From: Candidatus Woesearchaeota archaeon CG10_big_fil_rev_8_21_14_0_10_33_12 | GTDB lineage: Archaea > Nanobdellota > Nanobdellia > Woesearchaeales > CG1-02-33-12 | Length of the DNA stretch: 47,393 nt | Reading direction: 5' to 3' | Assembly: GCA_002762865.1 (NCBI GenBank) | Contig: PCYE01000003.1 | Coordinates: forward strand, 1-47,393 | Shown: positions 5,300 to 40,842 of the stretch, piece after piece | Layout: each line of letters starts with the position of its first letter | How positions within the stretch are numbered: position 1 is the stretch's first letter | Made by a program: the position numbers and the translations under genes | The notes under the pieces: model-generated | Told to the model about the DNA's origin: nothing | The model's input: only the letters and a program-made list of their open reading frames with translations | The model's database searches: none

Positions 5300-5611
5300 T
5301 TAGTTGAATTTTTTTATTATATGCTTTAATATAATTATCTGTGTTTTATCTTTCTCAGTTGTTTTCAAAAGTTCTTCTGCAAGCTTTTCCTCTTTAAATA
5401 TCTCTTTTATCCAGCTCGCAAAATCATTTTTCATATCGTTGACATGATATCTGAATACTTCGTCAGACATTTTATCAAGCTGTTTAGACAAATCCAATAC
5501 ATTCTTTAAAACAGTTCCATCATTAACAAAAAAATAATGGTCTGAATTTGCGTCCTTCAATATATCCTTCTTTTCTATTTTTTTCTCTTTAACTCTTTTT
5601 TGTGTTTTCAT
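5300..5611 (-). CDS. Uncharacterised protein, paralog B of the same domain (soluble, 103 aa)
   Basis: The motif block is HYFFVNDGTVLKNVLDLSKQLDKMSDEVFRYHVNDMKNDFASWIKEI. Its ATG overlaps the GH57 TGA stop as ATGA (5608-5611). Confidence 0.7.
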   Translation of the reverse strand: MKTQKRVKEKKIEKKDILKDANSDHYFFVNDGTVLKNVLDLSKQLDKMSDEVFRYHVNDMKNDFASWIKEIFKEEKLAEELLKTTEKDKTQIIILKHIIKKFN

Positions 5612-6825
5612 ACTAACACCTCTTTTTTTAATATATTTTTTTCTGAATGCTCTTTTAACCTGAAATTCATATCATTTAATATATTCATAAAAGTTATGAA
5701 TGCATCATAGGGATTATCATAAGGATTGAAGTATTTATGCACATCGCCATCATTGAACCATTTTGTACACATGTAATAAAAATGGTCGCTTGTCTGAAGC
5801 TTTCTCCAATCATTAATGAGTTTTTTATCCTTTGATTTTTTTATGGCATCTTCAATCTGGTATATCTCATTTATTGCTGACTTCTGCATGTCATTTCCAT
5901 CCCATGCGCTTGTATCCCTTTCAACATCTGCCCATGAAACAGGGCTGTGAATGTCTAATTCTGCAACCGGATTATATGCTTTTATTGCCTCACTAGGTGT
6001 CTTAAAATCATTGTCAGGATGCTTTAATAACTCCTGAGGCAAATGCCTTAAAAAATTAAATATTCCTGTATCTTCCCACTGGTGCTCTCCAAAGGTTTCA
6101 TAATCCATAAATAAATTAACTACATTCCCATTTCCATTAACAGCATTAACCCAATTAGTGTATTTATCAACTGTAAGTGGCCATTCCTTCCAGCCCTTAT
6201 CTGAAAACCTGAATGCAATATCGTCAGAAAGCTTGTAATTTTTAAGCAAAAGCTTAATTCTTGATGTTGTTTTTGGAGTATAAATAAAATTAGGTGATCT
6301 CCAGCCAAGTATATGGTCTGCTCCCTCTGCAAGTATTCCCTTATAACCCATTGATTCAACAAAATTTGCAAGCTCATTATTATAAACAAGCTCTGTGTTC
6401 CTAAAAACAGATGGATTCTGCTTAAACAAGCTTCTTATTTTTTTATTATGCAAAATAACCTGCTCCTTAAATTCCTGTTTTGAATGCAGGAATGCAAGCG
6501 AATGATAATATGTTTCATCAAGTATTTCAACCTTCCCTGTATCAACCAAATCCTTAAATGATTGCAAAACTTCTGGCATAAATTCCTCAAATTGCTCTAG
6601 GATAACACCTGAAAAAGAATAGCTTATCTTAAATTCTTCATGCTTGTTAAGCAGATCAAGCATTAGCTTGTTGGTTGGAAGATAACATTTTTCTGCAACT
6701 TTTTGTAGTATATCTAAATTCTTCTGCTTATTAGTGTAACTATGATTCTTTCCAATCTCAAAAACATTATAATTCCTAAGCCTGTAGGGCTGATGAACCT
6801 GAAAATAAAAACAAATTGATACCAT
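5608..6825 (-). CDS. Glycoside hydrolase family 57 (alpha-amylase/alpha-glucan-active enzyme)
   Basis: The N-terminus ICFYFQVHQPYRLRNY is typical of GH57 (HQP motif). Other family-like blocks are TELVYNNE, DYETFGEHQW and WADVERD. Confidence 0.8.
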   Translation of the reverse strand: MVSICFYFQVHQPYRLRNYNVFEIGKNHSYTNKQKNLDILQKVAEKCYLPTNKLMLDLLNKHEEFKISYSFSGVILEQFEEFMPEVLQSFKDLVDTGKVEILDETYYHSLAFLHSKQEFKEQVILHNKKIRSLFKQNPSVFRNTELVYNNELANFVESMGYKGILAEGADHILGWRSPNFIYTPKTTSRIKLLLKNYKLSDDIAFRFSDKGWKEWPLTVDKYTNWVNAVNGNGNVVNLFMDYETFGEHQWEDTGIFNFLRHLPQELLKHPDNDFKTPSEAIKAYNPVAELDIHSPVSWADVERDTSAWDGNDMQKSAINEIYQIEDAIKKSKDKKLINDWRKLQTSDHFYYMCTKWFNDGDVHKYFNPYDNPYDAFITFMNILNDMNFRLKEHSEKNILKKEVLV

Positions 6826-6834
6826 TTTTAATCT

Positions 6835-7584
6835 TTAATGTGTAAGCCACCCTCCGTCAACAAATAATGTAATGCCAGTTATATAATCTGAATTATCTGA
6901 GGCAAGGAATAGGGCTGCATTTGCTATGTCTTCTGGCTTTCCAATTCTGCTTAATGGAATATTGGCAAGCAGTGTTTCCTTTGTTGCTTTATCTTCTAAT
7001 AAGTCTTTTGTCATATCTGTTTCTATCACGCCTGGGCCGATTGCATTAACATTTATTTTATATTGCGCTAGCTCTAGAGCAAGCTCTCTTGTTATGTTTA
7101 TTATTGCTCCTTTTGAAGCACAGTAAGCACTAGAGTTTGCAAATCCTACCTGGCCTGCAATAGATGCTATATTAATTATCTTGCCTTTGCCCTGTTTTAT
7201 CATCTCTGGAACAACAGCTTTTGAACAGAGAAAAACTCCCTTAAGGTTTATGTCTAAAGTCCTGTCAAAATCCTGCTCTGTAACATCAGTTAATGATTTT
7301 TGCATATATATTCCTGCATTATTAACAAGTATATCAACTTTGCCAAATTTTTCTGTTGTTAAGTTTATCATTTGGCTAACATCTTCAGGATTGGAAACAT
7401 CTGTCTTAACAGCCAAAGCATTTCCATTAATAGCCTTAATCTCTTCAACTAGTTTATTGCAATCATCTAGGTTTATGTCACTAACAACAATATTTGCTCC
7501 TGCTTTTGCCAAAGCAAGTGCTATTGCCTTTCCAATCCCTCTTCTTGAACCTGTTACAATCGCTACTTTATTTTTTAGATTCAT
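6835..7584 (-). CDS. Short-chain dehydrogenase/reductase (FabG-like)
   Basis: TGSRRGIGKAIA is the TGxxxGxG cofactor motif. NNAG is present, and YCASKGA is the YxxxK catalytic motif. Confidence 0.85.
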   Translation of the reverse strand: MNLKNKVAIVTGSRRGIGKAIALALAKAGANIVVSDINLDDCNKLVEEIKAINGNALAVKTDVSNPEDVSQMINLTTEKFGKVDILVNNAGIYMQKSLTDVTEQDFDRTLDINLKGVFLCSKAVVPEMIKQGKGKIINIASIAGQVGFANSSAYCASKGAIINITRELALELAQYKINVNAIGPGVIETDMTKDLLEDKATKETLLANIPLSRIGKPEDIANAALFLASDNSDYITGITLFVDGGWLTH

Positions 7585-7597
7585 TCTAATACCCCCT

Positions 7598-8818
7598 TTA
7601 TGAACTGCTTAATACTTTTTTATAAACGTCAATGCATTTTTTGGCACTGTCATTCCAGCTGATTTTTTTTATTTCTATCAGACCATGCTCCTTTAAGCAA
7701 TGATGCAATGCATTATATTTAAGTACTGCTATTATCTTGCTGGCCATCTCATCAATATCCCAAAAATCAACCTTAAGGCAGTTTTTTATAACTTCTGAAA
7801 CACCTGACTGCTTTGAGATGATAACCGGGGTTCCGTTTCTCATTGCTTCTAATGGCGTTATTCCAAATGGCTCTGAAACAGAGGGCATAACATACAAGTC
7901 TGCCATTTTATATGCCCTGTTAATATCATCGCCACGCAAAAAGCCGGTAAATAAGACATGCTGTGCAATCCCTAACCTTGCTGCTCTTTCTATCATATCT
8001 ACTTCCATATCACCAGAGCCTGCAATAATAAACTTAATATTTTTTTCATTTTCAAGCACTTTTTTAGCAGCATCAAGGAAATAATCAGGGCCTTTTTGCA
8101 GTGTTATTCTTCCAAGGAATAAAACTATTTTATCCTGGCTTTTTATCTTAAACTCTTCAGTATCAGGGAAGCTTTTAAATTCAACAGCATTGTGAACTAC
8201 AAAAACTTTTTCAGAGCTTATTCCATAATGCTCTACTATTTTATTTTTTGTAAAGTTAGATACTGCTATAATCAAATCTGCAGCATGCATTCCCATTCTT
8301 TCAATATCATAAACAGCCTGGTTTGGATGGTCTCCTGTGCGGTCAAATTCAGTTGCATGAACATGCATAACCAATGGTTTTTTTGAGACTTTTTTTGCCT
8401 CAATTCCTGCCAAATAAGTCATCCAGTCATGGCAATGTATTAAATCAAAAGTCTCATTTTCAGCTATTTCCCTTGCTTTTCTGGCATATCTGTGAACTTC
8501 TTCAAATAAGTTTTGGCCATAAACCCTATTAAAATTCTTGTCTGAATTCATACATCTTTTCTTATGCATAGTTTCATATCCCTCTGATGATATATAAGGG
8601 ACCAATAATGAATCTACAGTTTTGATGTTAACAAAACTTGTAGAAAATGCAATTATCATATCAACAAAATCTGATTTAATTGGCTTTGGTGCTGTTGGGA
8701 TTACAAATGTTATATTAATGCCCTGTTTGCTTAGGCCTTTTGTAAGGCCATAGCATGCTGTTCCCAATCCACCTGTATTAAAAGGAGGAAATTCCCAGCC
8801 AAACATCAAAACTTTCAT
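7598..8818 (-). CDS. GT-B glycosyltransferase of GT4/GT5 type (archaeal/bacterial glycogen-synthase-like)
   Basis: The N-terminus MKVLMFGWEFPPFNTGGLGTACYGLTKGL resembles the starch/glycogen-synthase K-x-GGL region. EPFGITPLEAM is the E-x7-E motif. Confidence 0.65.
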   Translation of the reverse strand: MKVLMFGWEFPPFNTGGLGTACYGLTKGLSKQGINITFVIPTAPKPIKSDFVDMIIAFSTSFVNIKTVDSLLVPYISSEGYETMHKKRCMNSDKNFNRVYGQNLFEEVHRYARKAREIAENETFDLIHCHDWMTYLAGIEAKKVSKKPLVMHVHATEFDRTGDHPNQAVYDIERMGMHAADLIIAVSNFTKNKIVEHYGISSEKVFVVHNAVEFKSFPDTEEFKIKSQDKIVLFLGRITLQKGPDYFLDAAKKVLENEKNIKFIIAGSGDMEVDMIERAARLGIAQHVLFTGFLRGDDINRAYKMADLYVMPSVSEPFGITPLEAMRNGTPVIISKQSGVSEVIKNCLKVDFWDIDEMASKIIAVLKYNALHHCLKEHGLIEIKKISWNDSAKKCIDVYKKVLSSS

Positions 8819-8995
8819 TCAAACCCCTTTTTTGTTTATATAGCCAAATCTAACTAAAATAACTGGAAAGGCTTATTATATAAATAACTTACCAATTACT
8901 GCATAGTAACATAAGCATAGATTTGTTTACAAGTTAACCCTTAAAGAGATAAAACAAAACATATTTATATAAGTATTATTTGATATATGACATAA

Positions 8996-9589
8996 AAGGG
9001 GTGGTTTAGTATTAATACAGTTGAAATTGACCAGCAAGAGTATCTTATAATAAAAGAGCTTGTAAAAGATCCAAGAATTTCTGACAACCAGATAAGCAAA
9101 AAAACAAAAGTTCCTGTAAAAACAGTAAACAGGAAAAGAAAGCTTCTTGAGAAAAGCGGAATAATAAGTTATCATACAAACGTTGATAACACTCTTACAG
9201 GAACAGGAAAATTTGGCGCAAAGCAACAATATATAATAACCTTCAAGTATGGTATTACAAGAAGCATAATATTTGAGATTCTGAAGAGTAATATTCCTTC
9301 CAAGATAGAGATGAAACATATTTCTGAATGTTCAATCGGAGATAAGGATGGCCATGCAATTGTCACAATGACAATAGAGTCAAGGGTTGAATCTGACATA
9401 ATTGAGGTCTTTAATGCTGAGATTCTGCCAAAATTAAAAAGATTGCTTGGAGAGGATGCTGTGATAAAAACAGATGTGCTTACATTCAATTCACATTTCA
9501 TAAAGATGCATAATTACATGCCGTTTATTAACATGAGAAACGGAAAGATAAAAGAAGAATGGTCTGATGACCTGGTGTTTATTGATTAA
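8996..9589 (+). CDS. Lrp/AsnC-like HTH transcriptional regulator; open frame without a canonical start (possible pseudogene or non-canonical initiation)
   Basis: The frame translates as ..IDQQEYLIIKELVKDPRISDNQISKKTKVPVKTVNRKRKLLEKSGIISYH.., an AsnC-type HTH, and continues into the tracked 9311-9589 ORF. There is no in-frame ATG, GTG or TTG between the TAA at 8993 and the ATG at 9311. Confidence 0.55.
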   Translation, partial: KGWFSINTVEIDQQEYLIIKELVKDPRISDNQISKKTKVPVKTVNRKRKLLEKSGIISYHTNVDNTLTGTGKFGAKQQYIITFKYGITRSIIFEILKSNIPSKIEMKHISECSIGDKDGHAIVTMTIESRVESDIIEVFNAEILPKLKRLLGEDAVIKTDVLTFNSHFIKMHNYMPFINMRNGKIKEEWSDDLVFID

Positions 9590-9590
9590 A

Positions 9591-11378
9591 ATGGAAAAAG
9601 AAGCAGATTATTTGTTTGAGATTTCATGGGAAATATGTAACAAAGTTGGGGGTATTTATACTGTTGTTAAATCAAAGGCTGCTGAAATAATGGAATATTA
9701 TAAGGAAAATTATTTTGCAATAGGCCCTTTTTTTCCAGAAAAAGTGGCTGGGGAATTCCAGGAAAAAGTTCCTCCAGATAAACTAGCCAAAGCATTTGAA
9801 AAACTACAAAAACAAGGCATAAAGTGCCATTATGGAGGTTGGCTTATTAAGGGTGAACCTAACACAATTCTGGTTGATTTCAGTGGATTTACATCTAAAA
9901 AAGATGAAATAAAAACAAGCTTGTGGCAGAATTTTAAGATAGATTCACTTAACACACAATACTTTGATTTTGATGAGCCTGTTATCTGGTCATATGCTGT
10001 TGGGAAGCTTTTAGAGGAAATAAAAAATGTTTTCAATGATAAAAAAATTGTTGCGCAGTTTCATGAATGGCTAGCAGGAGCAGGCCTGCTTTACCTAAAG
10101 CAGAATAATGTCAAGGTTGCAACTGTTTTTACAACACATGCAACAATTCTTGGCAGGACAATGTCCTTTGCAAATGAAGAACTTTATGAAATATTTGACA
10201 AGATAAATCCAGAGAAAAAGGCATATGAATATGGTATACAGGCAAAATACCTTACAGAAAAGCAAAGTGCATTAAATGCAGATGTTTTTACAACTGTAAG
10301 TGAGATTACAGCCATAGAAGCAGAGCATCTCTTGGGAAAAAAGCCAGATGTTCTTTTGCCAAATGGCCTTGACCTTAAAAAGTTCCCGACATTTGAGGAG
10401 GCATCTATAAAACATCGTTTATACAGGGAAAGAATAAAGGAATTTCTGATGTATTATTTTTTTCCATATTATTCATTTGACCTTGATAATACTCTTCTTT
10501 ATTTCTTATGCGGAAGATATGAATTCAGGGCAAAGGGCATTGATATATTTATTAAGGCATTAGCAAAATTAAATGAAAAACTTAAAAAAGAGGAATCTAA
10601 CAAAACCATTGTGGCTTTTTTCTGGGTTCCTGGCAATATTAGGGCAATAAAAACAGGATTACTTGAAAATAAAACCTTTTTTGAAGACATAACAGATGCT
10701 ATTGATGATGATATAGGTGAAATTAAAAACAGGATAATTTATTCAATAGTTTCAAAAAAGAGCATTACAGAAAAAAACATTTTTGATGAAGACTTTCTGC
10801 ATGAAAACAAAAAAAAGGTTTTAAAGCTAATGAAAAAAGGGGATCCAGAGCTAACAACACATGATTTACAGGATGAAAAAAATGATTCTATTATCAAGTC
10901 CCTTAATGAAGCTGGCTTATTAAACAAAAAAGAAGACAGGGTAAAGGTTGTTTTTTATCCAATCTATCTAACTGGAGCTGATCAGCTGCTTGACCTGGGC
11001 TATTATGAATGCATGCAGGGCTCACATCTTGGTGTTTTTCCATCATACTATGAGCCATGGGGTTACACACCATTGGAAGCAGCTGCACTTGGTGTTTCAT
11101 CTGTAACAAGTGACTTGGCTGGATTTGGCAGGTATGTTAATGAAAAATCTGTGCAAACTAAAAATCCAGGAATATTTGTTTTGAAAAGATTAGGCAAAAA
11201 AGATGATGAGGTTGTTAATGAGCTTACTAATGCATTTTATTATTTCAGCAATTTATCAAAGCAGGAAAGAATAAAAAACAAGATGGAAGCACAAAGGTTA
11301 GCTTCATTGGCTGACTGGGAGGTTTTAATTAAAAATTATATTCAGGCACATAATCTTGCTATAAAGAGGCTTGGTTAA
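9591..11378 (+). CDS. Glycogen synthase, eukaryote-type (GT3 family-like)
   Basis: FEISWEICNKVGGIYTVVKSKA matches the hallmark N-terminal block of GT3 glycogen synthases. FHEWLAG, TTHATILGR, GVFPSYYEPWGYTPLE and the length (~596 aa) also fit. I prefer the ATG at 9591 over 9567, which overlaps the upstream gene. Confidence 0.75.
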   Translation: MEKEADYLFEISWEICNKVGGIYTVVKSKAAEIMEYYKENYFAIGPFFPEKVAGEFQEKVPPDKLAKAFEKLQKQGIKCHYGGWLIKGEPNTILVDFSGFTSKKDEIKTSLWQNFKIDSLNTQYFDFDEPVIWSYAVGKLLEEIKNVFNDKKIVAQFHEWLAGAGLLYLKQNNVKVATVFTTHATILGRTMSFANEELYEIFDKINPEKKAYEYGIQAKYLTEKQSALNADVFTTVSEITAIEAEHLLGKKPDVLLPNGLDLKKFPTFEEASIKHRLYRERIKEFLMYYFFPYYSFDLDNTLLYFLCGRYEFRAKGIDIFIKALAKLNEKLKKEESNKTIVAFFWVPGNIRAIKTGLLENKTFFEDITDAIDDDIGEIKNRIIYSIVSKKSITEKNIFDEDFLHENKKKVLKLMKKGDPELTTHDLQDEKNDSIIKSLNEAGLLNKKEDRVKVVFYPIYLTGADQLLDLGYYECMQGSHLGVFPSYYEPWGYTPLEAAALGVSSVTSDLAGFGRYVNEKSVQTKNPGIFVLKRLGKKDDEVVNELTNAFYYFSNLSKQERIKNKMEAQRLASLADWEVLIKNYIQAHNLAIKRLG

Positions 11379-12321
11379 AATAGAACTTAGGAAAGATTAT
11401 ATTTTGAACAGATGGGTGATTATAGCTTCTGAAAGAAAGAAAAGGCCAAAAGAATTTAAAAAAATCAAGGCAAATAAAGAGGGAATTTGCTATTTCTGCC
11501 CTGGCAATGAAAATCTCACCCCAACTGAAACTGGAAGGATTGAAAAAGATAGCAAGTGGATTATAAGGTGGTTTCCAAACAAGTTCCCTGCTGTAAGCCA
11601 TGAGGGAAACCCATCAATAAGAAGCACAAATAAGTATTTTACATATGCTGATGCATTTGGAATCCATGAAGTAATAGTTGAAACACCTGACCATGATAAG
11701 CAGCTTGCTGACTTATCAGAAGAGCGCATAAAAGAGGTTTTGAAGGTCTATGCTAACAGGATAACTGAATTAAGCAAAACAGACGGCACAAAATATGTAA
11801 TTGTCTTCAAGAATGAAGGGATGGAAGCAGGAACATCACTGGTTCATTCGCACACACAGGTTATGACTTATAACAAAGTTCCTGTTCTTGTTGAGGAAGA
11901 AGTTAATGCAGCCAGGGCTTATGGAACATGCCCTTATTGTGAGATAATCAATATTGAAAAAAACAGTTACAGAAGAGTCTTTGAAAATAATAATTTTGTA
12001 AGCTTTACGCCATATGCCTCAAGATTTAATTATGAAATCTGGATATTTCCAAAAGAGCATATAAAAAACATAACTGAAATGGATGAAGTTAAATTAGATG
12101 ATTTGGCTTCAATACTTAAAAAGATTTTGATGAAACTAAAAGAAATGAATCTTCCATATAATTTTTTCCTTCACTATGCTCCTGATGGGAAAGACTTACA
12201 TTTTCATATTGAAATATGCCCAAGGCTTGCTACATGGGCTGGCTTTGAGCTTGCAACAAATGCAACAATAAATTCTGTAAGCCCGGAAGATGCTGCAAAA
12301 TTTTACAGGGGAGAGGAATAG
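11371..12321 (+). CDS. galT: Galactose-1-phosphate uridylyltransferase-type HIT nucleotidyltransferase (GalT / ADP-glucose phosphorylase-like)
   Basis: CYFCPGNE is the Zn-site CxxC. HSHTQV is the HxHxQ active site. The second half-domain contains FENNNFVSFTPYASRFNYEIWIFP. The TTG start overlaps the GT3 gene by 8 nt. Confidence 0.8.
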   Translation: MVKIELRKDYILNRWVIIASERKKRPKEFKKIKANKEGICYFCPGNENLTPTETGRIEKDSKWIIRWFPNKFPAVSHEGNPSIRSTNKYFTYADAFGIHEVIVETPDHDKQLADLSEERIKEVLKVYANRITELSKTDGTKYVIVFKNEGMEAGTSLVHSHTQVMTYNKVPVLVEEEVNAARAYGTCPYCEIINIEKNSYRRVFENNNFVSFTPYASRFNYEIWIFPKEHIKNITEMDEVKLDDLASILKKILMKLKEMNLPYNFFLHYAPDGKDLHFHIEICPRLATWAGFELATNATINSVSPEDAAKFYRGEE

Positions 12322-35184: not shown

Positions 35185-35424
35185 TTGGTGATAGTTATGG
35201 TAAAGAAAGCAAGCAAAGAAGAGATGATTGGCTTTCATAAGGGGGCATTAACAACCTTGGCAAAGGAAAGGCAGGAAATGGCCAAGATATTGAGCATTGT
35301 GGAACAGCTTATGCAGATGCATGTAAAGTCATTGCAGGAGTTAGGAGTTGACCTTACAAAAGAGATTAAAAAAGAGAAAACATCAGCCAAAAAGCCAAAA
35401 ACACCTATAGAAGATATAATATAA
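35185..35424 (+). CDS. Hypothetical small helical protein (75-79 aa)
   Basis: This is the only ORF in the gap. Its coding-like composition differs from the flanks, and the hairpin plus T-run terminator follows directly. I recognise no family. Confidence 0.4.
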   Translation: MVIVMVKKASKEEMIGFHKGALTTLAKERQEMAKILSIVEQLMQMHVKSLQELGVDLTKEIKKEKTSAKKPKTPIEDII

Positions 35425-35580: not shown

Positions 35581-36690
35581 TCACTCAATCCCTTTGAAAA
35601 TATCCTGAAATAATTCAAGGATGCAACGTGATTCAGGCCTTTCTTCAATCACATTTTCTATAATTCTTTTATTCTTTTCTTTGTAGGTAACCCAGTCTGC
35701 AGATCCATTCTCTGCAGTTTTGTGCATGTCCTTGCTTCTTATCTGGGTTTCAATCGGCTCTCCGAAAAAGTCTCCTATAATATGGTATGATTCATATTCA
35801 TTATTTTTAATAAGAGGAAGATTATCCCTCTTTAAATATGGCTTGGTCTGCTTGATAGTATACCAGTATTTATCAGATTCCCTGTAAGCATAATTAACAA
35901 GAATAACCTTCTTACTATCTTCATCTAATACCTGGCCGCATGACTCAGCAATTTTTTTTACTGTTGGAATTATGTCGCCCTCTTTTTTGGTTATGACCCT
36001 GACTGCTTTTCTGTCTGCAATATCTGTTATATCAGTATAGTTAGTCTCAATCTTGTCAGCTTCTGCCCTTATTTTTTTGTTTAAGTATTGCTCACAAATC
36101 AAAATAAATGCTTTCTGGCTTAGGCTGTCATAGTGTTTTAGCCTTGCCTGAATCTCTGAAATAACCTCTTTTGCTTTATCTTCATGGATATAATCTAAAA
36201 TTTCCCTTATGTATGACCTGTTTATTTTAATTTTGATGTTTTCTTCATTCATATACTCTTTTGTAAAATTTTGCTGTTTTCTAATCTGGTTTTCTGTAAA
36301 TTTAAAATCAGTTGTTGATTCCATTTCTTTTTTTAGGTTATCTTCAATATTTAACTCTATATTTTGGTTTATACTGCTATTAGGCCTAGTAATATCATAA
36401 TCAATAATAAATTCTGATTTGATGTTTGGGTTTAACTCCTGATTGTATAAAAGGTTTTCATGGGTGAAATTCATAAACCAAGAAAGTAAAAACCTGTCAT
36501 TAATAGATATTTCTTCATATTTTTTCTTGGCAGAGTTGATTATTCTTTCTAGTTTTTTATCCCTACTGAGATGCCCAGATAAGGGAAAATCTATGATTTT
36601 ATTTAAATCAGACTTGAAACTGGATTTAAGATTACTAAGATAATCAACTAATTCTTTTTTTTCTTTGTAATTTTGGGGGAAAGCCAGCAT
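35581..36690 (-). CDS. RelA/SpoT-domain nucleotide pyrophosphokinase (small alarmone synthetase / toxSAS-like) with an unrecognised ~155-aa N-terminal domain
   Basis: The C-terminal half carries four motifs in order: ARLKHYDSLSQK (R.K...S...K), DITDIADRKAVRVI (DIA..R strand), YESYHIIG (Y.SYH) and IETQIRSKDMHKTAENGSADWVTYK (E.QIR[ST]..MH..AE...YK). Confidence 0.7.
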   Translation of the reverse strand: MLAFPQNYKEKKELVDYLSNLKSSFKSDLNKIIDFPLSGHLSRDKKLERIINSAKKKYEEISINDRFLLSWFMNFTHENLLYNQELNPNIKSEFIIDYDITRPNSSINQNIELNIEDNLKKEMESTTDFKFTENQIRKQQNFTKEYMNEENIKIKINRSYIREILDYIHEDKAKEVISEIQARLKHYDSLSQKAFILICEQYLNKKIRAEADKIETNYTDITDIADRKAVRVITKKEGDIIPTVKKIAESCGQVLDEDSKKVILVNYAYRESDKYWYTIKQTKPYLKRDNLPLIKNNEYESYHIIGDFFGEPIETQIRSKDMHKTAENGSADWVTYKEKNKRIIENVIEERPESRCILELFQDIFKGIE

Positions 36691-36758
36691 TTTTATTTAA
36701 TAAGTATATTAATTGTTTATAAAGCTTTCTATTTTTACTACTGTTAAGGTGACATCCT

Positions 36759-36778
36759 CCCCGCACTAAAGTGCGGGG
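36759..36778. repeat. IS end hairpin (tnpA-distal end)
   Basis: ccccgcac-taaa-gtgcgggg is a perfect 8-bp stem. It overlaps the tnpA stop codon. Confidence 0.7.
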
Positions 36779-37215
36779 CTTCCTGTGAAGTGGCTTAAGG
36801 AAGTTTGGTGCACATTCATTTGATTTTTTATATATTCATCAACTGTTTCTACTGTGTTGTATCCAACGCTGCTTGCATAAGCTCCTGGGCTAAAAAGATG
36901 TCCTCGCGGATATCTCAATTTAAATTTTGGTTGCTGCCTGAAAAGTTGGTAGCTGAGATTTCCTTTCAGAAGTTGTAATGCTTTGCTTTGGCTCATGCTT
37001 GGTGGTGTTTCTACACTGATATGTATGTGTTCAGGCATTACAAAAAGCTCCCTAATTATTATTCTGTGCCTTTGCGCTGTTTTTTTTAGAATTTCTTCGC
37101 ATAAGTTTTTATACTTGTCCTGCTTAAATATTTTATATCTGTATTTTGTGCACCATTCAAGATGATGCACATTCACGCCGACCTTGTGCGCATGGTGTTT
37201 GATTTCAAGTGCCAT
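36766..37215 (-). CDS. tnpA: IS200/IS605-family Y1 (HUH) transposase TnpA
   Basis: HLEWCTKYRYKIF, PEHIHISV (HUH motif) and SSVGYNTVETVDEYIKNQ (catalytic Tyr region) are present. I prefer the start at MALEIK (37215) over the track's 37242. Confidence 0.85.
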   Translation of the reverse strand: MALEIKHHAHKVGVNVHHLEWCTKYRYKIFKQDKYKNLCEEILKKTAQRHRIIIRELFVMPEHIHISVETPPSMSQSKALQLLKGNLSYQLFRQQPKFKLRYPRGHLFSPGAYASSVGYNTVETVDEYIKNQMNVHQTSLSHFTGSPAL

Positions 37216-37328
37216 TTTGTGTCTCCGGCGAAGAAAGCTCACGCTAACTTGAGGAGGTTAGTGCGTGGCGCAAAAAATTTCGTTCGCCACGCTTTTTTTA
37301 TTTTACAAGTAGAAAAACTTAGCCATTC

Positions 37329-37353
37329 ATCTCACGCACTAAAGTGCTGAGAT
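37329..37353. repeat. IS end hairpin (tnpA-proximal end)
   Basis: atctcacgcac-taaa-gtgctgagat forms 10 bp with one bulged C. It has the same GCAC-TAAA-GTGC apex as the other end. Confidence 0.7.
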
Positions 37354-37397
37354 TTCTGGCTTATGCGATTAAAATTATACTGTAAAAAATAAATTAT

Positions 37398-37865
37398 CTA
37401 TTCTGGGATTTCTAAATTATACTTAAACCTTCTTACCTTTGGAACAAAATTAAGTATCTTGCCTTGTTTGTACTTGCCTGTACCAAGAAAATCATTTTCA
37501 TACTTCAGTATTACAAAACCAGTGTAATTGCCTTTTATATCTATATCCTCACCTTTAAGCCACTGCATGGCCTGTTTTTCATCTAGTTTAATAGTATTTA
37601 GTTTTGCACTTTTACCTATTAATTGTGAGCCCTCAATGCTAAGCCTTAGCTCATTGTTTTTAAGTTCTCCAAAGTAAAGGCCGATTGAATTAATTCTTAG
37701 TTTTTCAAGGTTTAAATTAAACACTTCTTTATTTACAAGAAATATCTTATTTTGGGTATTCATCAAGAAAGCAAGTTCTGTCTTGAAATCAGCATTCCAT
37801 TGTTTTTTTATCAAAGCTAGTATTTCTTTAATCTTTTTTCTGTTTAGTATTTTTAGTTCAAGCAT
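37398..37865 (-). CDS. NIP7-like / PUA-domain RNA-binding protein (ribosome-biogenesis-type)
   Basis: It is ~155 aa long. GLYFGELKNNELRLSIEGSQLIG and the C-terminal PUA-like block GFVILKYENDFLGTGKY are present. It starts 3 nt after the aIF5B stop. The assignment is tentative. Confidence 0.5.
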   Translation of the reverse strand: MLELKILNRKKIKEILALIKKQWNADFKTELAFLMNTQNKIFLVNKEVFNLNLEKLRINSIGLYFGELKNNELRLSIEGSQLIGKSAKLNTIKLDEKQAMQWLKGEDIDIKGNYTGFVILKYENDFLGTGKYKQGKILNFVPKVRRFKYNLEIPE

Positions 37866-37868
37866 TGG

Positions 37869-39629
37869 TCAGACACCCCAGAGAGAATTTTCCTTTCTCA
37901 TCATTACTGCAATCTCTTTCAAGAGGGTTATCTCCCCTTCTGTCAGATGTTTTTTCAGCTCTTTTAGCTTTTTGAAATCGCTTTCTGGAATTACAGAATA
38001 TAGTATGTCACCTTCATTTATTTGCCTTCCTACAGTAACTTTATCTAAGGATATCGCAACTTGCTTCCCTTTTTCAGCTTCTGTAACTTTCTTTTTTTCA
38101 GATTGTATGCTTTTTATTGTCGTGAGATGAATAACATCTTTCATTAGCCGCATATTGGTTTTTATTTTGCCCTCAAGAATGTCTACCCCAACAACTGCAG
38201 GGTTATTCTGCCTAAAAACATAGCCAGGCATTATTTTGATTTTGCAAGGCCTGATAAGCATCTCCACCTCAGCTGCCTCACGCCTTTTTGTCTCACCCAC
38301 AACCCATTTTTCAAAATCTTCTATAAGCTTATAAATGATATCACTTGTAAAAATCTTTACTTTTTCTGATTTTGCATCATCATTTAAAGATACATTAAAG
38401 CCGATTACAACTGCTTTTAATGGGTCCTTCTCGTAGTTGCTATCTGCATCAATTACATCTTTTTTTGAGATATTGCCAATTGATGCCCGTCTTATATTGA
38501 TATTCTTCTCCCTGAATATATTTATTAATGCCTCAAGAGAGCCAAGTGAATCTGCCTTTAAAATAATTCCTTGTATATCTGTTTCTATTATAACCTCGGA
38601 AACTAATTTCTGGATTTCCTGTTTTGTTTTCTCAAGAGAATCTTTTGAGCTAGACATTAACGGCATTCCTGCAACAACATTCTCTATTTCAGGGGCAGAT
38701 ATTCTCAGGCATCTGGCAGCACATACACTGCTAACCTGTTTAAACCTTGCTTTCTTGTCTCTTATCTCTGACAATGGCATTGGCTCAAACAATGCCCTTA
38801 CCTTTGTTACAACTGGTTTCTTTATACCGCCAATAACAATAACATCATCTTTTTTTAATGTGCCGTCATAGATAATGACATCTATGGCCACTCCAAGACC
38901 CTTTCCCTCTTTAACCTCTAGTACAGTTCCTTTTGCCGGCCTGTTAATATCGCACTCCAGGCGGCCTTCAAGATACTTCTGTGCAAGTCCTGTTAGGACC
39001 ATCAACAGCTCTGGAATCCCCTCTCCTGTTTTTGATGAAACTGGAATTATTGCAATCTCTTTTGTGTAATCTAAAACCCTGTCAAAGCGCTCACTTGCAA
39101 ATCCAAACTCATGCAGTTTTCCCAAAATCTCATAAAGCTTTATATCAAGCCTTTTCTGGACATCCTGCCCTTGGTTAGAAATGCTCTTTAAGATATTGTC
39201 CTTAGTTGAGTTCCATCCAGGTAATAAATCTATCTTGTTTGCTACAACAATAAAAGGAGTTTTCTTGTGCTTTAATATCTCAACTGCCTCTTCTGTCTGG
39301 GGCTTAAAGCCCTCATTAATGTCAACAACAAGAATAGCTATATCTGCAAGGCTTCCTCCCCTTTTCCTGAGGTTTGTGAATGCAGCATGCCCTGGAGTGT
39401 CAATAAATAAAAGCCCTGGAATTGTGAATTTTATTTTTAATGAATCAAGCAATGGCCCGCATACCTTCTTAATAGTATCAAGGGGAATTAAAGAAGCCCC
39501 TATTGCCTGTGTTATTGCCCCTGCCTCATCCTTAACAATATGGCTATGCCTGATATAATCAAGCAGGCTTGACTTTCCATGGTCAACATGTCCCACAACA
39601 GTGCATACAGGAGATCTGATAGTGTTCAT
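37869..39629 (-). CDS. infB: Translation initiation factor aIF5B (IF2-type GTPase)
   Basis: RSPVCTVVGHVDHGKSSLLD is G1, DTPGH is G3 and NKID is G4. Four-domain length is present. I prefer the start at MNTIRSP; the track's 39728 start would overlap the divergent trm1. Confidence 0.9.
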   Translation of the reverse strand: MNTIRSPVCTVVGHVDHGKSSLLDYIRHSHIVKDEAGAITQAIGASLIPLDTIKKVCGPLLDSLKIKFTIPGLLFIDTPGHAAFTNLRKRGGSLADIAILVVDINEGFKPQTEEAVEILKHKKTPFIVVANKIDLLPGWNSTKDNILKSISNQGQDVQKRLDIKLYEILGKLHEFGFASERFDRVLDYTKEIAIIPVSSKTGEGIPELLMVLTGLAQKYLEGRLECDINRPAKGTVLEVKEGKGLGVAIDVIIYDGTLKKDDVIVIGGIKKPVVTKVRALFEPMPLSEIRDKKARFKQVSSVCAARCLRISAPEIENVVAGMPLMSSSKDSLEKTKQEIQKLVSEVIIETDIQGIILKADSLGSLEALINIFREKNINIRRASIGNISKKDVIDADSNYEKDPLKAVVIGFNVSLNDDAKSEKVKIFTSDIIYKLIEDFEKWVVGETKRREAAEVEMLIRPCKIKIMPGYVFRQNNPAVVGVDILEGKIKTNMRLMKDVIHLTTIKSIQSEKKKVTEAEKGKQVAISLDKVTVGRQINEGDILYSVIPESDFKKLKELKKHLTEGEITLLKEIAVMMRKENSLWGV

Positions 39630-39705
39630 CTTACTTACCAGGAAATTATATTCACTTTTAAAGCTTTCCAAAAGTTTTATATTAATATGGGTTCTTATAT
39701 TTTCT

Positions 39706-40842
39706 ATGGAGATAATACAAGAAGGCAAAGCAAGAATAAAAACATATACAGCTGAAACAGTATCAAGAGATATGCCTGTATTTTACAACCCTGCTATGAA
39801 TCTTAACAGGGACATAAATGTTTTGCTGTTAAACTCAATTAATAAAAAAAATATGCAGGTTGCATTGCCACTGGCTGCAACAGGAATTAGAGGGATAAGG
39901 TTTCTGCTTGAACTAAAAAAAGCAAAAGTAAAAACAATCTCATTCAATGACAGGAGTATTGATGCATTCAAACTAATAAAGGGCAATTTAAAGCTAAACA
40001 AAATTAAATCAGGCAAAAAGATAATTGTAACAAATCTCGATGCAAATGAGTTTCTTTTAAGCTCCAAGGGATTTGATTATATTGACATTGACCCATTCGG
40101 CTCGCCAAACTTTTTTTTAGACAGTGCAATAAAAAGGCTTGCCCGCGGGGGAATTCTTGCTGTGACTGCAACTGACACTGCGGCATTGTGCGGGACCTCA
40201 AAAAATGCATGCCTTAGAAAATACTCTAGCAAGCCATTGAAAAATGAGTTCTGCCACGAAACAGGATTAAGGATTCTTATTTCAAAAGTCCAGTCAGCTG
40301 GGGCACAGTATGACAAGGCATTGATACCAGTCTTCTCATACTCAAAAGAGCATTACTTCAGGGTTTTCTTTGAATGCGAAAAGGGAAAGAAAAAAGCAGA
40401 TGAAATAATAAAAAACTATGGCTATATTCTTCACTGCAAAAAATGCCTTTTCAGGGAAAATGCAGATAGCATATTCAATGATGAAAAATGCCCGTTGTGC
40501 AAATCAAAACTTGACTATGCAGGAAAGATTTGGCTTGGCCAATTGTATGACAAAAATCTTGCAGACAAGATGAATCAGGAGGCCAAGAAAAGCGAAAACA
40601 AGGAATTGATTAAACTAATGAAAATAATAAGCAATGAATCAAAAATAAATGAAGTTGGATTTTATGATTTAGCAAAAGTTGTTAAACACAACAAGCTGAA
40701 AAATGTCCCTAAAAAAGAACTTTTAATTGATGAGATAAAAAAACAGGGATTTAAAGCTGCTGAAACACACATAAGGCCAAACTCAATAAGAAGCAGTATA
40801 ACAATAAAAGGCTTGGTAAAAATCATAAAAAAACTGAACTAA
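39706..40842 (+). CDS. trm1: tRNA (guanine26-N2)-dimethyltransferase Trm1
   Basis: EGKARIKTY..VFYNPAMNLNRD is the Trm1 N-terminal signature. DIDPFGSP is the SAM-MTase motif. The C-terminal domain has the Zn cysteines CKKC...CPLC. I prefer the start at MEIIQEG. Confidence 0.88.
   Translation: MEIIQEGKARIKTYTAETVSRDMPVFYNPAMNLNRDINVLLLNSINKKNMQVALPLAATGIRGIRFLLELKKAKVKTISFNDRSIDAFKLIKGNLKLNKIKSGKKIIVTNLDANEFLLSSKGFDYIDIDPFGSPNFFLDSAIKRLARGGILAVTATDTAALCGTSKNACLRKYSSKPLKNEFCHETGLRILISKVQSAGAQYDKALIPVFSYSKEHYFRVFFECEKGKKKADEIIKNYGYILHCKKCLFRENADSIFNDEKCPLCKSKLDYAGKIWLGQLYDKNLADKMNQEAKKSENKELIKLMKIISNESKINEVGFYDLAKVVKHNKLKNVPKKELLIDEIKKQGFKAAETHIRPNSIRSSITIKGLVKIIKKLN

Follow-up and report, generated by a model that had tools for sequence, protein, structure and literature searches.

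Whether archaea use (p)ppGpp-type alarmones is an old question, and the RelA/SpoT homologue (RSH) genes of archaea are known from annotation only. The question is raised in concrete form by a contig of Candidatus Woesearchaeota archaeon CG10_big_fil_rev_8_21_14_0_10_33_12 (PCYE01000003.1, positions 1 to 47,393 of the forward strand; this whole stretch of 47,393 nucleotides is the window in what follows), which carries on its minus strand, at 35581..36690, a complete gene for a protein of 369 amino acids (ATG to TGA, the stop codon occupying 35581-35583), delimited from the list of open reading frames (ORFs), the sequence and Pfam. A preliminary description had read the product as a RelA/SpoT-domain (RSD) protein with a novel N-terminal domain, and had proposed for it the role of a self-contained stress or defence module akin to the toxic RSHs. 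What might such a protein do in a small-genome archaeon? We put at about even chances the reading that we favour, namely that the gene encodes an active nucleotide alarmone synthetase regulated by its N-terminal domain.

That the ORF encodes a genuine RelA/SpoT synthetase-domain protein is clear, the match being far beyond chance. The Pfam model PF04607 (RelA_SpoT) matches residues 205-340 at 40.5 bits against a gathering cut-off of 27 (E=3.8e-10); the long-RSH models of NCBIfam match only in part and far under their cut-offs. A phmmer search of PDB sequences with the 369-residue protein returned Rel and RelA enzymes only, a profile of the family described below found RelSeq (1vj7) at E=1.1e-13 and RelP/RelQ at 1e-7, and hhalign aligned the synthetase part with the SYNTH domain of long RSHs at 98.8% (E=1.3e-16). 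These searches, with the structural one below, place the SYNTH domain at residues 177-345 (35656..36162, minus strand). As the preliminary description had stated, there is no HD, TGS or ACT domain in the protein, according to Pfam and, for HD, hhalign. The C-terminus consists of two helices only (332-366) in the model described next, and the protein is slightly acidic (pI 6.2) rather than basic.

A first AlphaFold2 run, supplied with the 13 close homologs only, was unusable (pLDDT, the predicted local distance difference test score, of 35); a second, to which five distant family members and SYNTH segments of long RSHs were added, reached a mean pLDDT of 85 and a predicted template modelling score (pTM) of 0.86. 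When this model was compared with the PDB by Foldseek the top 50 matches were all RSH synthetases, among them RelP, RelQ (5ded), RelSeq, S. aureus Rel, RelA and SpoT, the best being RelP 6fgx (E=7e-6), with CapRel 7ztb weaker (E=2e-3). The comparison with predicted viral structures gave significant matches to a RelA/SpoT protein of a phage and to a large phage protein described as 'DdrB-like'; further large phage proteins and one more RelA/SpoT protein came just under significance.

The active site appears complete. We used MAFFT to align 30 sequences comprising the family, SYNTH segments of long RSHs and three proteins resembling small alarmone synthetases (SASs); in this alignment, A3, R183, K185, S189, D226, R231, K295, N297, Y299, R318, M322, E327 and A331 are invariant (30/30), and K213, A229, H303, G310, E314, Q316, Y336 and K337 are at least 90% conserved. 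The four ordered motifs noted in the preliminary description are all present at the family positions, and their catalytic residues align to RelSeq: in DIADRKAVRVI the catalytic Asp is the second one (D226), KNNEYESYH provides K295, N297, Y299 and H303, and IETQIRS provides E314, Q316 and R318. Residue by residue, the profile pairs the window protein with 1vj7 as D226=D264, R231=R269, K283=K297, K295=K304, N297=N306, Y299=Y308, H303=H312, E314=E323, Q316=Q325 and R318=R327. In RelSeq D264 and E323 are the catalytic, Mg2+-coordinating residues, the adenine of ATP is sandwiched by R241 and R269, and the guanine is stacked by Y308 with N306 nearby (PMC7983052). The codon for D226, counterpart of the Mg2+-coordinating Asp (RelSeq D264, RelP D107), lies at 36013..36015, that for E314, counterpart of the catalytic Glu (RelSeq E323, RelP E174), at 35749..35751, and the invariant acceptor-site loop K295-N-N297-E-Y299 at 35794..35808, all on the minus strand; in the distant relative P0019 an Asp replaces E314. 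Judged by alignment, then, the RSD protein keeps the predicted counterparts of the Rel/RelP/RelQ residues that contact the ATP adenine (R183, R231), Mg2+ (D226, E314) and the triphosphate (K185, S189, K193), as well as those of the acceptor base (N297 and Y299, with K283, K295 and H303 nearby).

The position of the first motif needs comment, as the Pfam and hhalign alignments begin at about residue 205 and would put the canonical R.K...S...K on 205-216. Two insertions specific to the family interrupt the SYNTH domain in A3, at about 190-212 and about 255-280, the second preceding K283, and we attribute the late start of these alignments to the first of them, a stretch of about 20 residues following the motif. 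We place the motif at 183-193 because R183-x-K185-x3-S189-x3-K193 is invariant across the 30 sequences with exactly the canonical spacing, and MAFFT matches it to the canonical motif in all of them; and because in the model a strand at 177-184 and a helix at 187-202 reproduce the canonical RSH layout, 206-218 being the sole low-confidence loop.

The protein belongs to a very small family, confined to archaea and of fixed architecture. A word-indexed search of 5.8 billion proteins recovered 13 proteins only, all at least 71% identical, and an exhaustive HMMER profile search of 1.84 billion cluster representatives gave 11 matches. Besides the cluster of the protein itself these were five distant relatives of full length, three short SYNTH proteins, a fragment and a repeat artefact. 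The distant full-length relatives (P0014, P0016, P0018, P0019 and P0020; 378-447 aa) are 24-29% identical and have both halves of the protein in common with it, and all lie on archaeal contigs with genes such as those for S27e, eIF2alpha, Nop10, aIF5B, eIF1A and LSM. Closer orthologs, at 72-80% identity, come from metagenomes and from GTDB species genomes titled Candidatus Woesearchaeota archaeon, which agrees with the small-genome archaeal host originally described. As the catalytic positions are invariant at 24-29% identity and the gene is under purifying selection (see below), the chemistry has presumably been maintained, which points to an active ATP-dependent 3'-pyrophosphokinase.

Some details of the close orthologs deserve mention in their own right. 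In the L008 ortholog (8790-8950) translation would stop after residue 31, and the similarity picks up in a different frame some 22 codons further on, amounting to a deletion and a frameshift, so that it is either a pseudogene or an assembly error; its called product, of 296 aa, begins at an internal Met. Residues 320-333 (nt ~35692-35731), in the helix that follows the catalytic strand, occur in two forms in alignment A1, 'DMH---ETAE.GSADW' and 'YMDIIAEAKEESAASW', the second with a 3-residue insertion; their distribution departs from similarity elsewhere in the protein (the N-terminal part of P0006 resembles those of P0004 and P0005, yet P0006 has the second form), suggesting recombination between alleles. 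Two public metagenome-assembled genomes labelled Methanosarcinales, L010 (CAYOHL010000018.1) and L013 (JAFCBX010000040.1), carry the syntenic region at low GC, with neighbouring proteins 75-90% identical to those of the window; these labels probably reflect mis-binning or mislabelling, though a physical association of a DPANN archaeon with Methanosarcinales hosts could also account for them.

What distinguishes the family is the part of the protein that precedes the SYNTH domain, residues 1-176 (36163..36690, minus strand), for which searches of Pfam, NCBIfam and PDB sequences, hhalign, and Foldseek against the PDB and predicted viral structures gave no match. The impression of a region without recognisable relatives thus holds outside the family, and its extent is about 176 residues. 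Among the 1.84 billion representatives it occurs in about six clusters at 50% identity, and none has it without the SYNTH domain. The model shows a long helical hairpin (8-34, 45-80), a long beta-hairpin (89-114), three short helices and a strand (153-166), with pLDDT of 88-97 over most of the length, and I32, F72, F94, D128 and S159 are invariant throughout the family. In comparisons with five orthologs the ratio of nonsynonymous to synonymous substitution rates (dN/dS) was 0.14-0.32 over the whole gene and 0.19-0.45 in the SYNTH part, and had its lowest values, 0.04-0.26, in residues 1-110. A region that is confidently modelled, has residues invariant across the family and includes, in its first 110 residues, the gene's lowest dN/dS is not a junk extension: it is a domain of some 176 residues private to the family and under strong purifying selection.

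Could it instead be what remains of an HD domain? The protein would then be a shrunken N-terminal half of a long RSH, its N-domain a degenerate and inactive pseudo-hydrolase with a helical linker, as in RelA. At 369 aa the protein is about as long as N-terminal fragments of Rel (~385 aa), long RSHs are its nearest relatives by sequence, and sub-threshold HMMER alignments pair position 16 of the profile with Rel residue 85, albeit with scores of about 0. The HD fold, however, is all-helical, whereas long beta-strands (89-114, 153-166) appear in the model; when residues 1-177 were compared with the HD regions of long RSHs, hhalign gave a probability of 0.08%; no conserved His-Asp metal-site motif is present; and the one full-length Foldseek alignment to a Rel structure with HD and SYNTH domains (7oiw_A, 328 columns) has a root-mean-square deviation of 16.9 and a TM-score of about 0.25, the other Rel matches spanning 150-190 columns, about the size of the SYNTH domain. 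At this sensitivity we reject the pseudo-hydrolase on the strength of the hhalign result and the beta-strands, and regard the shrunken long RSH as very improbable indeed.

The picture that we favour is of a catalytically competent, single-chain member of the RSH superfamily, chromosomally encoded in a few Woesearchaeota-type (DPANN) lineages, that would move the beta,gamma-pyrophosphate from ATP onto the 3'-OH of a purine nucleotide, most likely GDP or GTP, with (p)ppGpp as the product, and less likely an adenine nucleotide. An alarmone synthetase is favoured because the acceptor-site residues are those of enzymes that use guanine nucleotides and because the closest relatives are bona fide (p)ppGpp synthetases. 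The N-domain, which forms one compact body with the SYNTH domain in the model (pTM 0.86), may control the activity by autoinhibition, by oligomerisation, or by binding a ligand or partner, and would thereby stand in for the regulatory HD and C-terminal domains that long RSHs have. Since no relative of it could be detected and it is under tighter constraint than the catalytic domain, it probably represents a new way of regulating an RSH.

The gene appears to have its own promoter. Immediately upstream lies a block of 58 nt (36691..36748, minus strand) that is nearly invariant in 7 orthologous loci although their synonymous sites differ by 25-55%; it contains an archaeal TATA-like TTTATAAA (36716-36723, minus strand), preceded by AGAAAG and CTTAA.AGTAGTA, and probably functions as a promoter. 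With a conserved TATA-type element of its own about 29 nt before the ATG, the gene is probably transcribed alone, into a leaderless or near-leaderless mRNA. Beyond this block, as the preliminary description had noticed, is an IS200/IS605-type insertion sequence (IS) of about 635 bp (36749..37385, minus strand; boundaries to within about 15 bp), defined by gap alignment against the empty sites of L001, L007 and L008. It contains a Y1 transposase ORF (36766-37242, minus strand; Pfam Y1_Tnp, E=2e-26) and end hairpins at 36759-36778 and ~37335-37356, and separates the RSD gene from the PUA-like gene discussed below. The IS is specific to the window, where it occurs once, as the single copy among all the loci; it ends about 26 bp upstream of TTTATAAA, at the edge of the conserved block, and so leaves the promoter intact. 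No significance attaches to its proximity, since it is absent from all the relatives and lies outside the promoter block; the copy is probably a recent, incidental insertion that would add read-through transcription at most.

As to the element itself, it has the features of IS200/IS605 members (a Y1, or HUH, transposase and subterminal hairpins, without long inverted repeats), carries the transposase without TnpB and points in the same direction as the RSD gene; as no T-run follows its 3' hairpin (36759-36778), transcription might conceivably read through into the region of the RSD promoter. In L020, too, there is a Y1_Tnp gene near the same region (11577-12056).

Might the gene nevertheless be a decaying or catalytically dead remnant with no enzymatic role? 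The disruption of the L008 ortholog, the moderately high dN/dS of the SYNTH part (0.19-0.45) and the adjoining IS would suit a gene on its way out. Against them, the gene of the window and more than 10 orthologs have an unbroken reading frame, the catalytic residues are invariant even among relatives of 24-29% identity, dN/dS over the whole gene is well below 1, and the promoter is conserved and was spared by the IS. Decay is thus hardly credible as an account of this gene.

The RSD gene resides in a region rich in translation genes. Its neighbours in the window are archaeal housekeeping genes, those for aIF5B, a 155-aa PUA-like protein, Trm1, a DRG-type GTPase with a TGS domain, an Asn-synthase-like protein, CTP synthase, ThrRS and SRP54, with PTH2 also near. 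All close relatives lack the IS and share the arrangement Trm1 / aIF5B / PUA-like / RSD / small convergent ORF / Asn-synthase-like / DRG, except that in L006 the downstream side is rearranged. The PUA-like gene (37398..37865, minus strand; 155 aa, Pfam Methyltranf_PUA), co-directional with the RSD gene, is its native upstream neighbour, now split from it by the IS; the two are adjacent in L001-L008 and L010-L012, and two or three genes apart in L014 and L017. In the latter two loci the order is small ORF - DUF371 - MCT-1/Tma20-like PUA - RSD, with gaps before the RSD gene of 60 nt (L014) and 8 nt (L017), followed by the PUA-like gene two or three genes on and then, in L014 only, by aIF5B. Here DUF371 and the MCT-1/Tma20-like PUA gene (DUF1947/PUA_eIF2D) form a tight co-directional pair upstream of the RSD gene (L014:442-1297; L017:7131-7992), an arrangement that may be an operon or merely synteny. 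The region (aIF5B, PUA-like, Trm1, the small ORF, and eIF2alpha/S27e/Nop10) is common to lineages whose core proteins are 47-57% identical, and we take this to mean that the RSD gene has long been resident there by vertical descent. GC content at the locus, 31-33%, shows no local anomaly within the 23-41% range of the window.

On the downstream side the RSD gene converges with a small gene (35197..35424, plus strand) encoding a conserved protein of 75 aa found in Woesearchaeota and Nanoarchaeota. The tiny ORF of the preliminary description is therefore real, and it accompanies the RSD cluster again in L014 and L017, co-occurring with it in three deep lineages. Its family, though, is spread over Woesearchaeota and Nanoarchaeota with at least 2744 clusters, where the RSD family has about 20, and most of them are without an RSD gene. 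On these grounds we regard it as a housekeeping gene of the lineage rather than a dedicated partner, and reject it as an antitoxin. Its product is 90-92% identical in close relatives and still 61-76% identical in lineages where the RSD protein has fallen to 24-27%. It is of 70-84 aa (MVKKASKEEMIGFHKGAL...KKPKTPIEDII), has no Pfam domain, and is labelled 'hypothetical' or, in JGI, 'thiaminase', the latter probably wrongly; usually it sits beside DUF371 and an Asn-synthase-like gene (elsewhere at L014:231-455, L017:6890-7144, L018:6001-6219, L020:6001-6213 and L022:6001-6225). Its conservation, far stronger than that of its neighbours, suggests an unrecognised core function.

In Woesearchaeota that have no member of the RSD family (L018, L020, L022) the same flanks enclose unrelated, unannotated genes, of 423 and 122 aa in L018, 460 and 101 aa in L020, and 311, 405 and 135 aa in L022. 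The coordinates of the slot are L018:6693-8385, L020:6802-8548, L022:6302-8823, L014:2563-4274 and, in the window, 35581-37385. The occupants of 405-460 aa were considered as hyper-divergent members of the family and rejected, hmmsearch --max giving them about 8 bits or less; they and the other slot proteins have no Pfam or PADLOC match and are barely similar to one another, the sole match being a stretch of 59 aa between L018_423 and L022_311. The slot, extending from the small ORF/DUF371 side to the PUA-like/aIF5B side, may be an integration hotspot or may hold a set of very fast-evolving genes. A slot of variable content, the rarity of the gene and a rate of evolution about twice that of its neighbours speak in part for the preliminary description; the other occupants of the slot match no defence model. 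The only defence-flavoured neighbour in any lineage is beside P0016, a divergent AAA_14/DUF4143 ATPase (L016:612-2096, minus strand; PADLOC candidate PDC-S01, E=4e-37) followed by a gene for a 2'-5' RNA ligase (LigT-like).

The company of translation genes invites the thought that the protein is a non-toxic, translation-linked pyrophosphokinase whose acceptor is an RNA 3' end or another ribose 3'-OH (in tRNA, rRNA or a cofactor) in place of GDP or GTP, and which acts in concert with the PUA-domain or translation-factor proteins encoded next to it. A co-directional PUA-type gene is found directly upstream in three deeply separated lineages, and it belongs to either of two PUA families, Methyltranf_PUA in the window clade and MCT-1/Tma20-like in L017 (8 nt away) and L014 (60 nt); aIF5B, PTH2, Trm1 and DRG are nearby, and the two insertions stand next to acceptor-site elements. 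Yet regional synteny of translation genes in compact genomes can explain such linkage, the more so as the same core genes flank unrelated cargo in other Woesearchaeota; no PUA gene adjoins P0016 or P0019; the RSD gene has its own conserved promoter; and its acceptor-site residues are those of guanine-nucleotide-using enzymes. We consider an RNA-directed role of this kind quite unlikely.

The variable slot bears on the preliminary description's own proposal, a self-contained toxic RSH effector. In this proposal the protein is an archaeal analogue of CapRel or of a fused toxSAS with reversed domain order, whose N-domain keeps the SYNTH domain inactive until it is released by a trigger, for instance infection by a virus or faulty translation; the enzyme would then pyrophosphorylate the tRNA 3'-CCA or make (pp)pApp, and so stop growth. 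A single chain with an extra conserved domain, a very patchy distribution, evolution faster than that of the neighbours, lineage-variable content of the slot, an ortholog with a frameshift and deletion, and the PDC-S01-matching ATPase adjoining the gene in one lineage would all be in keeping with it, as would the recurrence of PUA-domain (RNA-binding) genes alongside. So would Y299: its FaRel2 equivalent, Y128, stacks on the CCA adenine, and the tRNA-type enzymes have no diagnostic signature. The family profile matched none of the toxSAS chains (FaRel, FaRel2, PhRel, PhRel2, CapRel, Tas1) at E<=10, and CapRel was weak in Foldseek compared with RelP, RelQ and Rel; PADLOC gave no match for the RSD protein; viral contigs, phages and plasmids held no copy, tblastn returning just chromosomal SpoT/Rel genes in mis-filed records; and there is no conserved antitoxin, the downstream neighbours differing in every lineage. 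Together with the lack of defence-model matches among the other slot occupants and the slightly acidic character of the protein, these results make a toxic effector unlikely, and the failure to find a toxSAS profile match, a PADLOC match, a mobile copy or an antitoxin is a further reason to favour an alarmone synthetase. The nearest relatives, moreover, are housekeeping (p)ppGpp synthetases, and the defence reading is not supported.

The N-domain argues in the same direction. The sensor of CapRel is hypervariable, while the putative sensor of the RSD protein is its most constrained part (dN/dS 0.04-0.26), the opposite of what we would expect of a phage-sensing module. A bolder form of the idea makes of the gene an autonomous, single-chain growth-arrest switch of archaea: the private N-domain would sense a translation- or virus-derived cue and release an RSH that acts on the tRNA CCA or makes (pp)pApp, a logic like that of CapRel independently invented, in reversed order, in a DPANN lineage and housed in a variable slot beside aIF5B and PUA genes. 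This we hold to be decidedly improbable.

To return to the alarmone synthetase, several observations weigh against it. Kurata et al. report that no clear sequence signature tells RSHs that modify tRNA from those that make alarmones, related enzymes can differ in acceptor specificity, and a look through the literature gave no usable residue-level rules for predicting the acceptor (G, A or tRNA); for the first two of these reasons the acceptor proposed here is a guess. The two insertions flank active-site elements and could redirect specificity. As of 2021 (p)ppGpp had been detected in no archaeon (PMC8646023). A gene for an HD/SAH hydrolase was not found by tblastn in the window and some 305 kb of related contigs, a search that is uninformative for whole genomes. 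The model of the N-domain, though good, was built on a shallow family alignment. The RSD gene evolves about twice as fast as its neighbours: between the window and its closest lineages (L008, L011, L013) DRG, PUA-like and aIF5B are 85-93% identical and RSD 72-73%, and between the window and L014 aIF5B is 57%, PUA-like 51%, the small ORF 76% and RSD 27% identical. It is very rare, with about six clusters at 50% identity compared with at least 2744 for the small gene next to it, and it lies in an interval of changing content, though as an old resident of a conserved translation-gene region. Fast evolution, a variable slot and one disrupted relative would suit an accessory or conflict gene better than a core regulator.

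Across the window, scans with Rfam and for tRNAs gave nothing. The aIF5B ORF (37869-39728, minus strand; 619 aa, TTG start) overlaps that of Trm1 (39601-40842, plus strand; GTG start) by about 128 bp; as the called orthologs are of 586 aa for aIF5B and 373-382 aa for Trm1, both genes probably begin further inside these ORFs and diverge from a short promoter region common to them. At 5608-11378 are genes for a GH57 glycoside hydrolase, a short-chain dehydrogenase, a GT4/starch-synthase-like glycosyltransferase and a eukaryote/archaeal-type glycogen synthase (PF05693), a putative glycogen/alpha-glucan cluster that would be a notable storage-polymer capacity for a small-genome DPANN archaeon.

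What makes the family worth pursuing is that it offers the question of archaeal alarmones a concrete test object: a short and intact synthetase whose active site is complete and which selection has kept in several lineages of Woesearchaeota, and so a rare, testable candidate for stress-nucleotide signalling in archaea. IF2 and Obg, the bacterial counterparts of aIF5B and the DRG/Obg-type GTPases, bind (p)ppGpp; should the product prove to be (p)ppGpp, these two neighbours of the RSD gene would suggest themselves as targets. Should the enzyme act on tRNA instead, RSH-mediated shut-off of translation would extend to archaea.

How, finally, does the RSD protein compare with the systems already known? 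By hidden Markov model, catalytic residues and fold it is a member of the RSH superfamily, its activity being predicted. Its best structural matches are RelP and RelQ (SAS1/SAS2; 6ewz, 6fgx, 5ded; Foldseek E=7e-6 to 1e-4, target-normalised TM-score 0.41-0.47), with which it has in common the SYNTH core, the catalytic, ATP and acceptor residues, and the lack of HD, TGS and ACT domains. The SASs, however, are single-domain proteins of about 190-230 aa without the extra N-terminal region of some 176 aa or the two SYNTH insertions, identity to them is only 15-20%, and the host of the RSD protein is an archaeon. By sequence the closest are the long RSHs, namely Rel, RelA and also SpoT (profile E=1e-13), with about 40% identity over the core K.NGY.S.H...E.Q.R..MH..AE..A.H..YK and catalytic residues that correspond one-to-one; but the RSD protein is half their length and has no HD (hhalign 0.08%), TGS, ZFD or ACT/RRM domain. 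CapRel(SJ46) (7ztb), a fused toxin-antitoxin tRNA pyrophosphokinase, resembles it in joining in one polypeptide a SYNTH domain (Foldseek E=2e-3) to an extra, possibly autoinhibitory, domain. In CapRel that domain is a C-terminal pseudo-ZFD antitoxin/sensor, whereas in the RSD protein it is N-terminal and the most conserved part; nor does the RSD protein show profile similarity to CapRel at E<=10, a PADLOC match or any presence on phages or prophages. It thus fits neither the textbook SASs nor the long RSHs, and, having no antitoxin, no C-terminal sensor and no defence-model match, does not fit the toxSAS or CapRel systems either.

Two precedents come nearer in architecture or host. A SYNTH-only RSH with an unrelated N-terminal domain is known in actRel, where that domain is DUF429, and a sporadic archaeal SAS without recognisable hydrolase in divRel of Methanosarcina acetivorans (Atkinson et al. 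2011, PMC3153485); the N-domain of the RSD protein is not DUF429, having no Pfam match, and its host is a DPANN archaeon, not a methanogen. The sporadic RSHs described earlier were attributed to horizontal transfer, whereas the RSD family is vertically retained and syntenic across deep lineages. The rarity ascribed to archaeal (p)ppGpp signalling in the preliminary description needs qualifying. The nucleotide had indeed been detected in no archaeon as of 2021 (PMC8646023), but RelA/SpoT is annotated in 41.7% of Woesearchaeota genomes, with an inferred bacterial origin (Li et al. 2021, PMC8407392), so that an RSH gene in a DPANN archaeon is not new in itself. That figure is a count of annotations, without architecture or subfamily, and the RSD family is far rarer; with about six clusters at 50% identity it can be at most a small subset of the annotated DPANN RelA/SpoT genes. 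What is new is a distinct, tiny family with a private and strongly constrained N-domain, two insertions in its SYNTH domain, and a place in a variable slot among translation genes.

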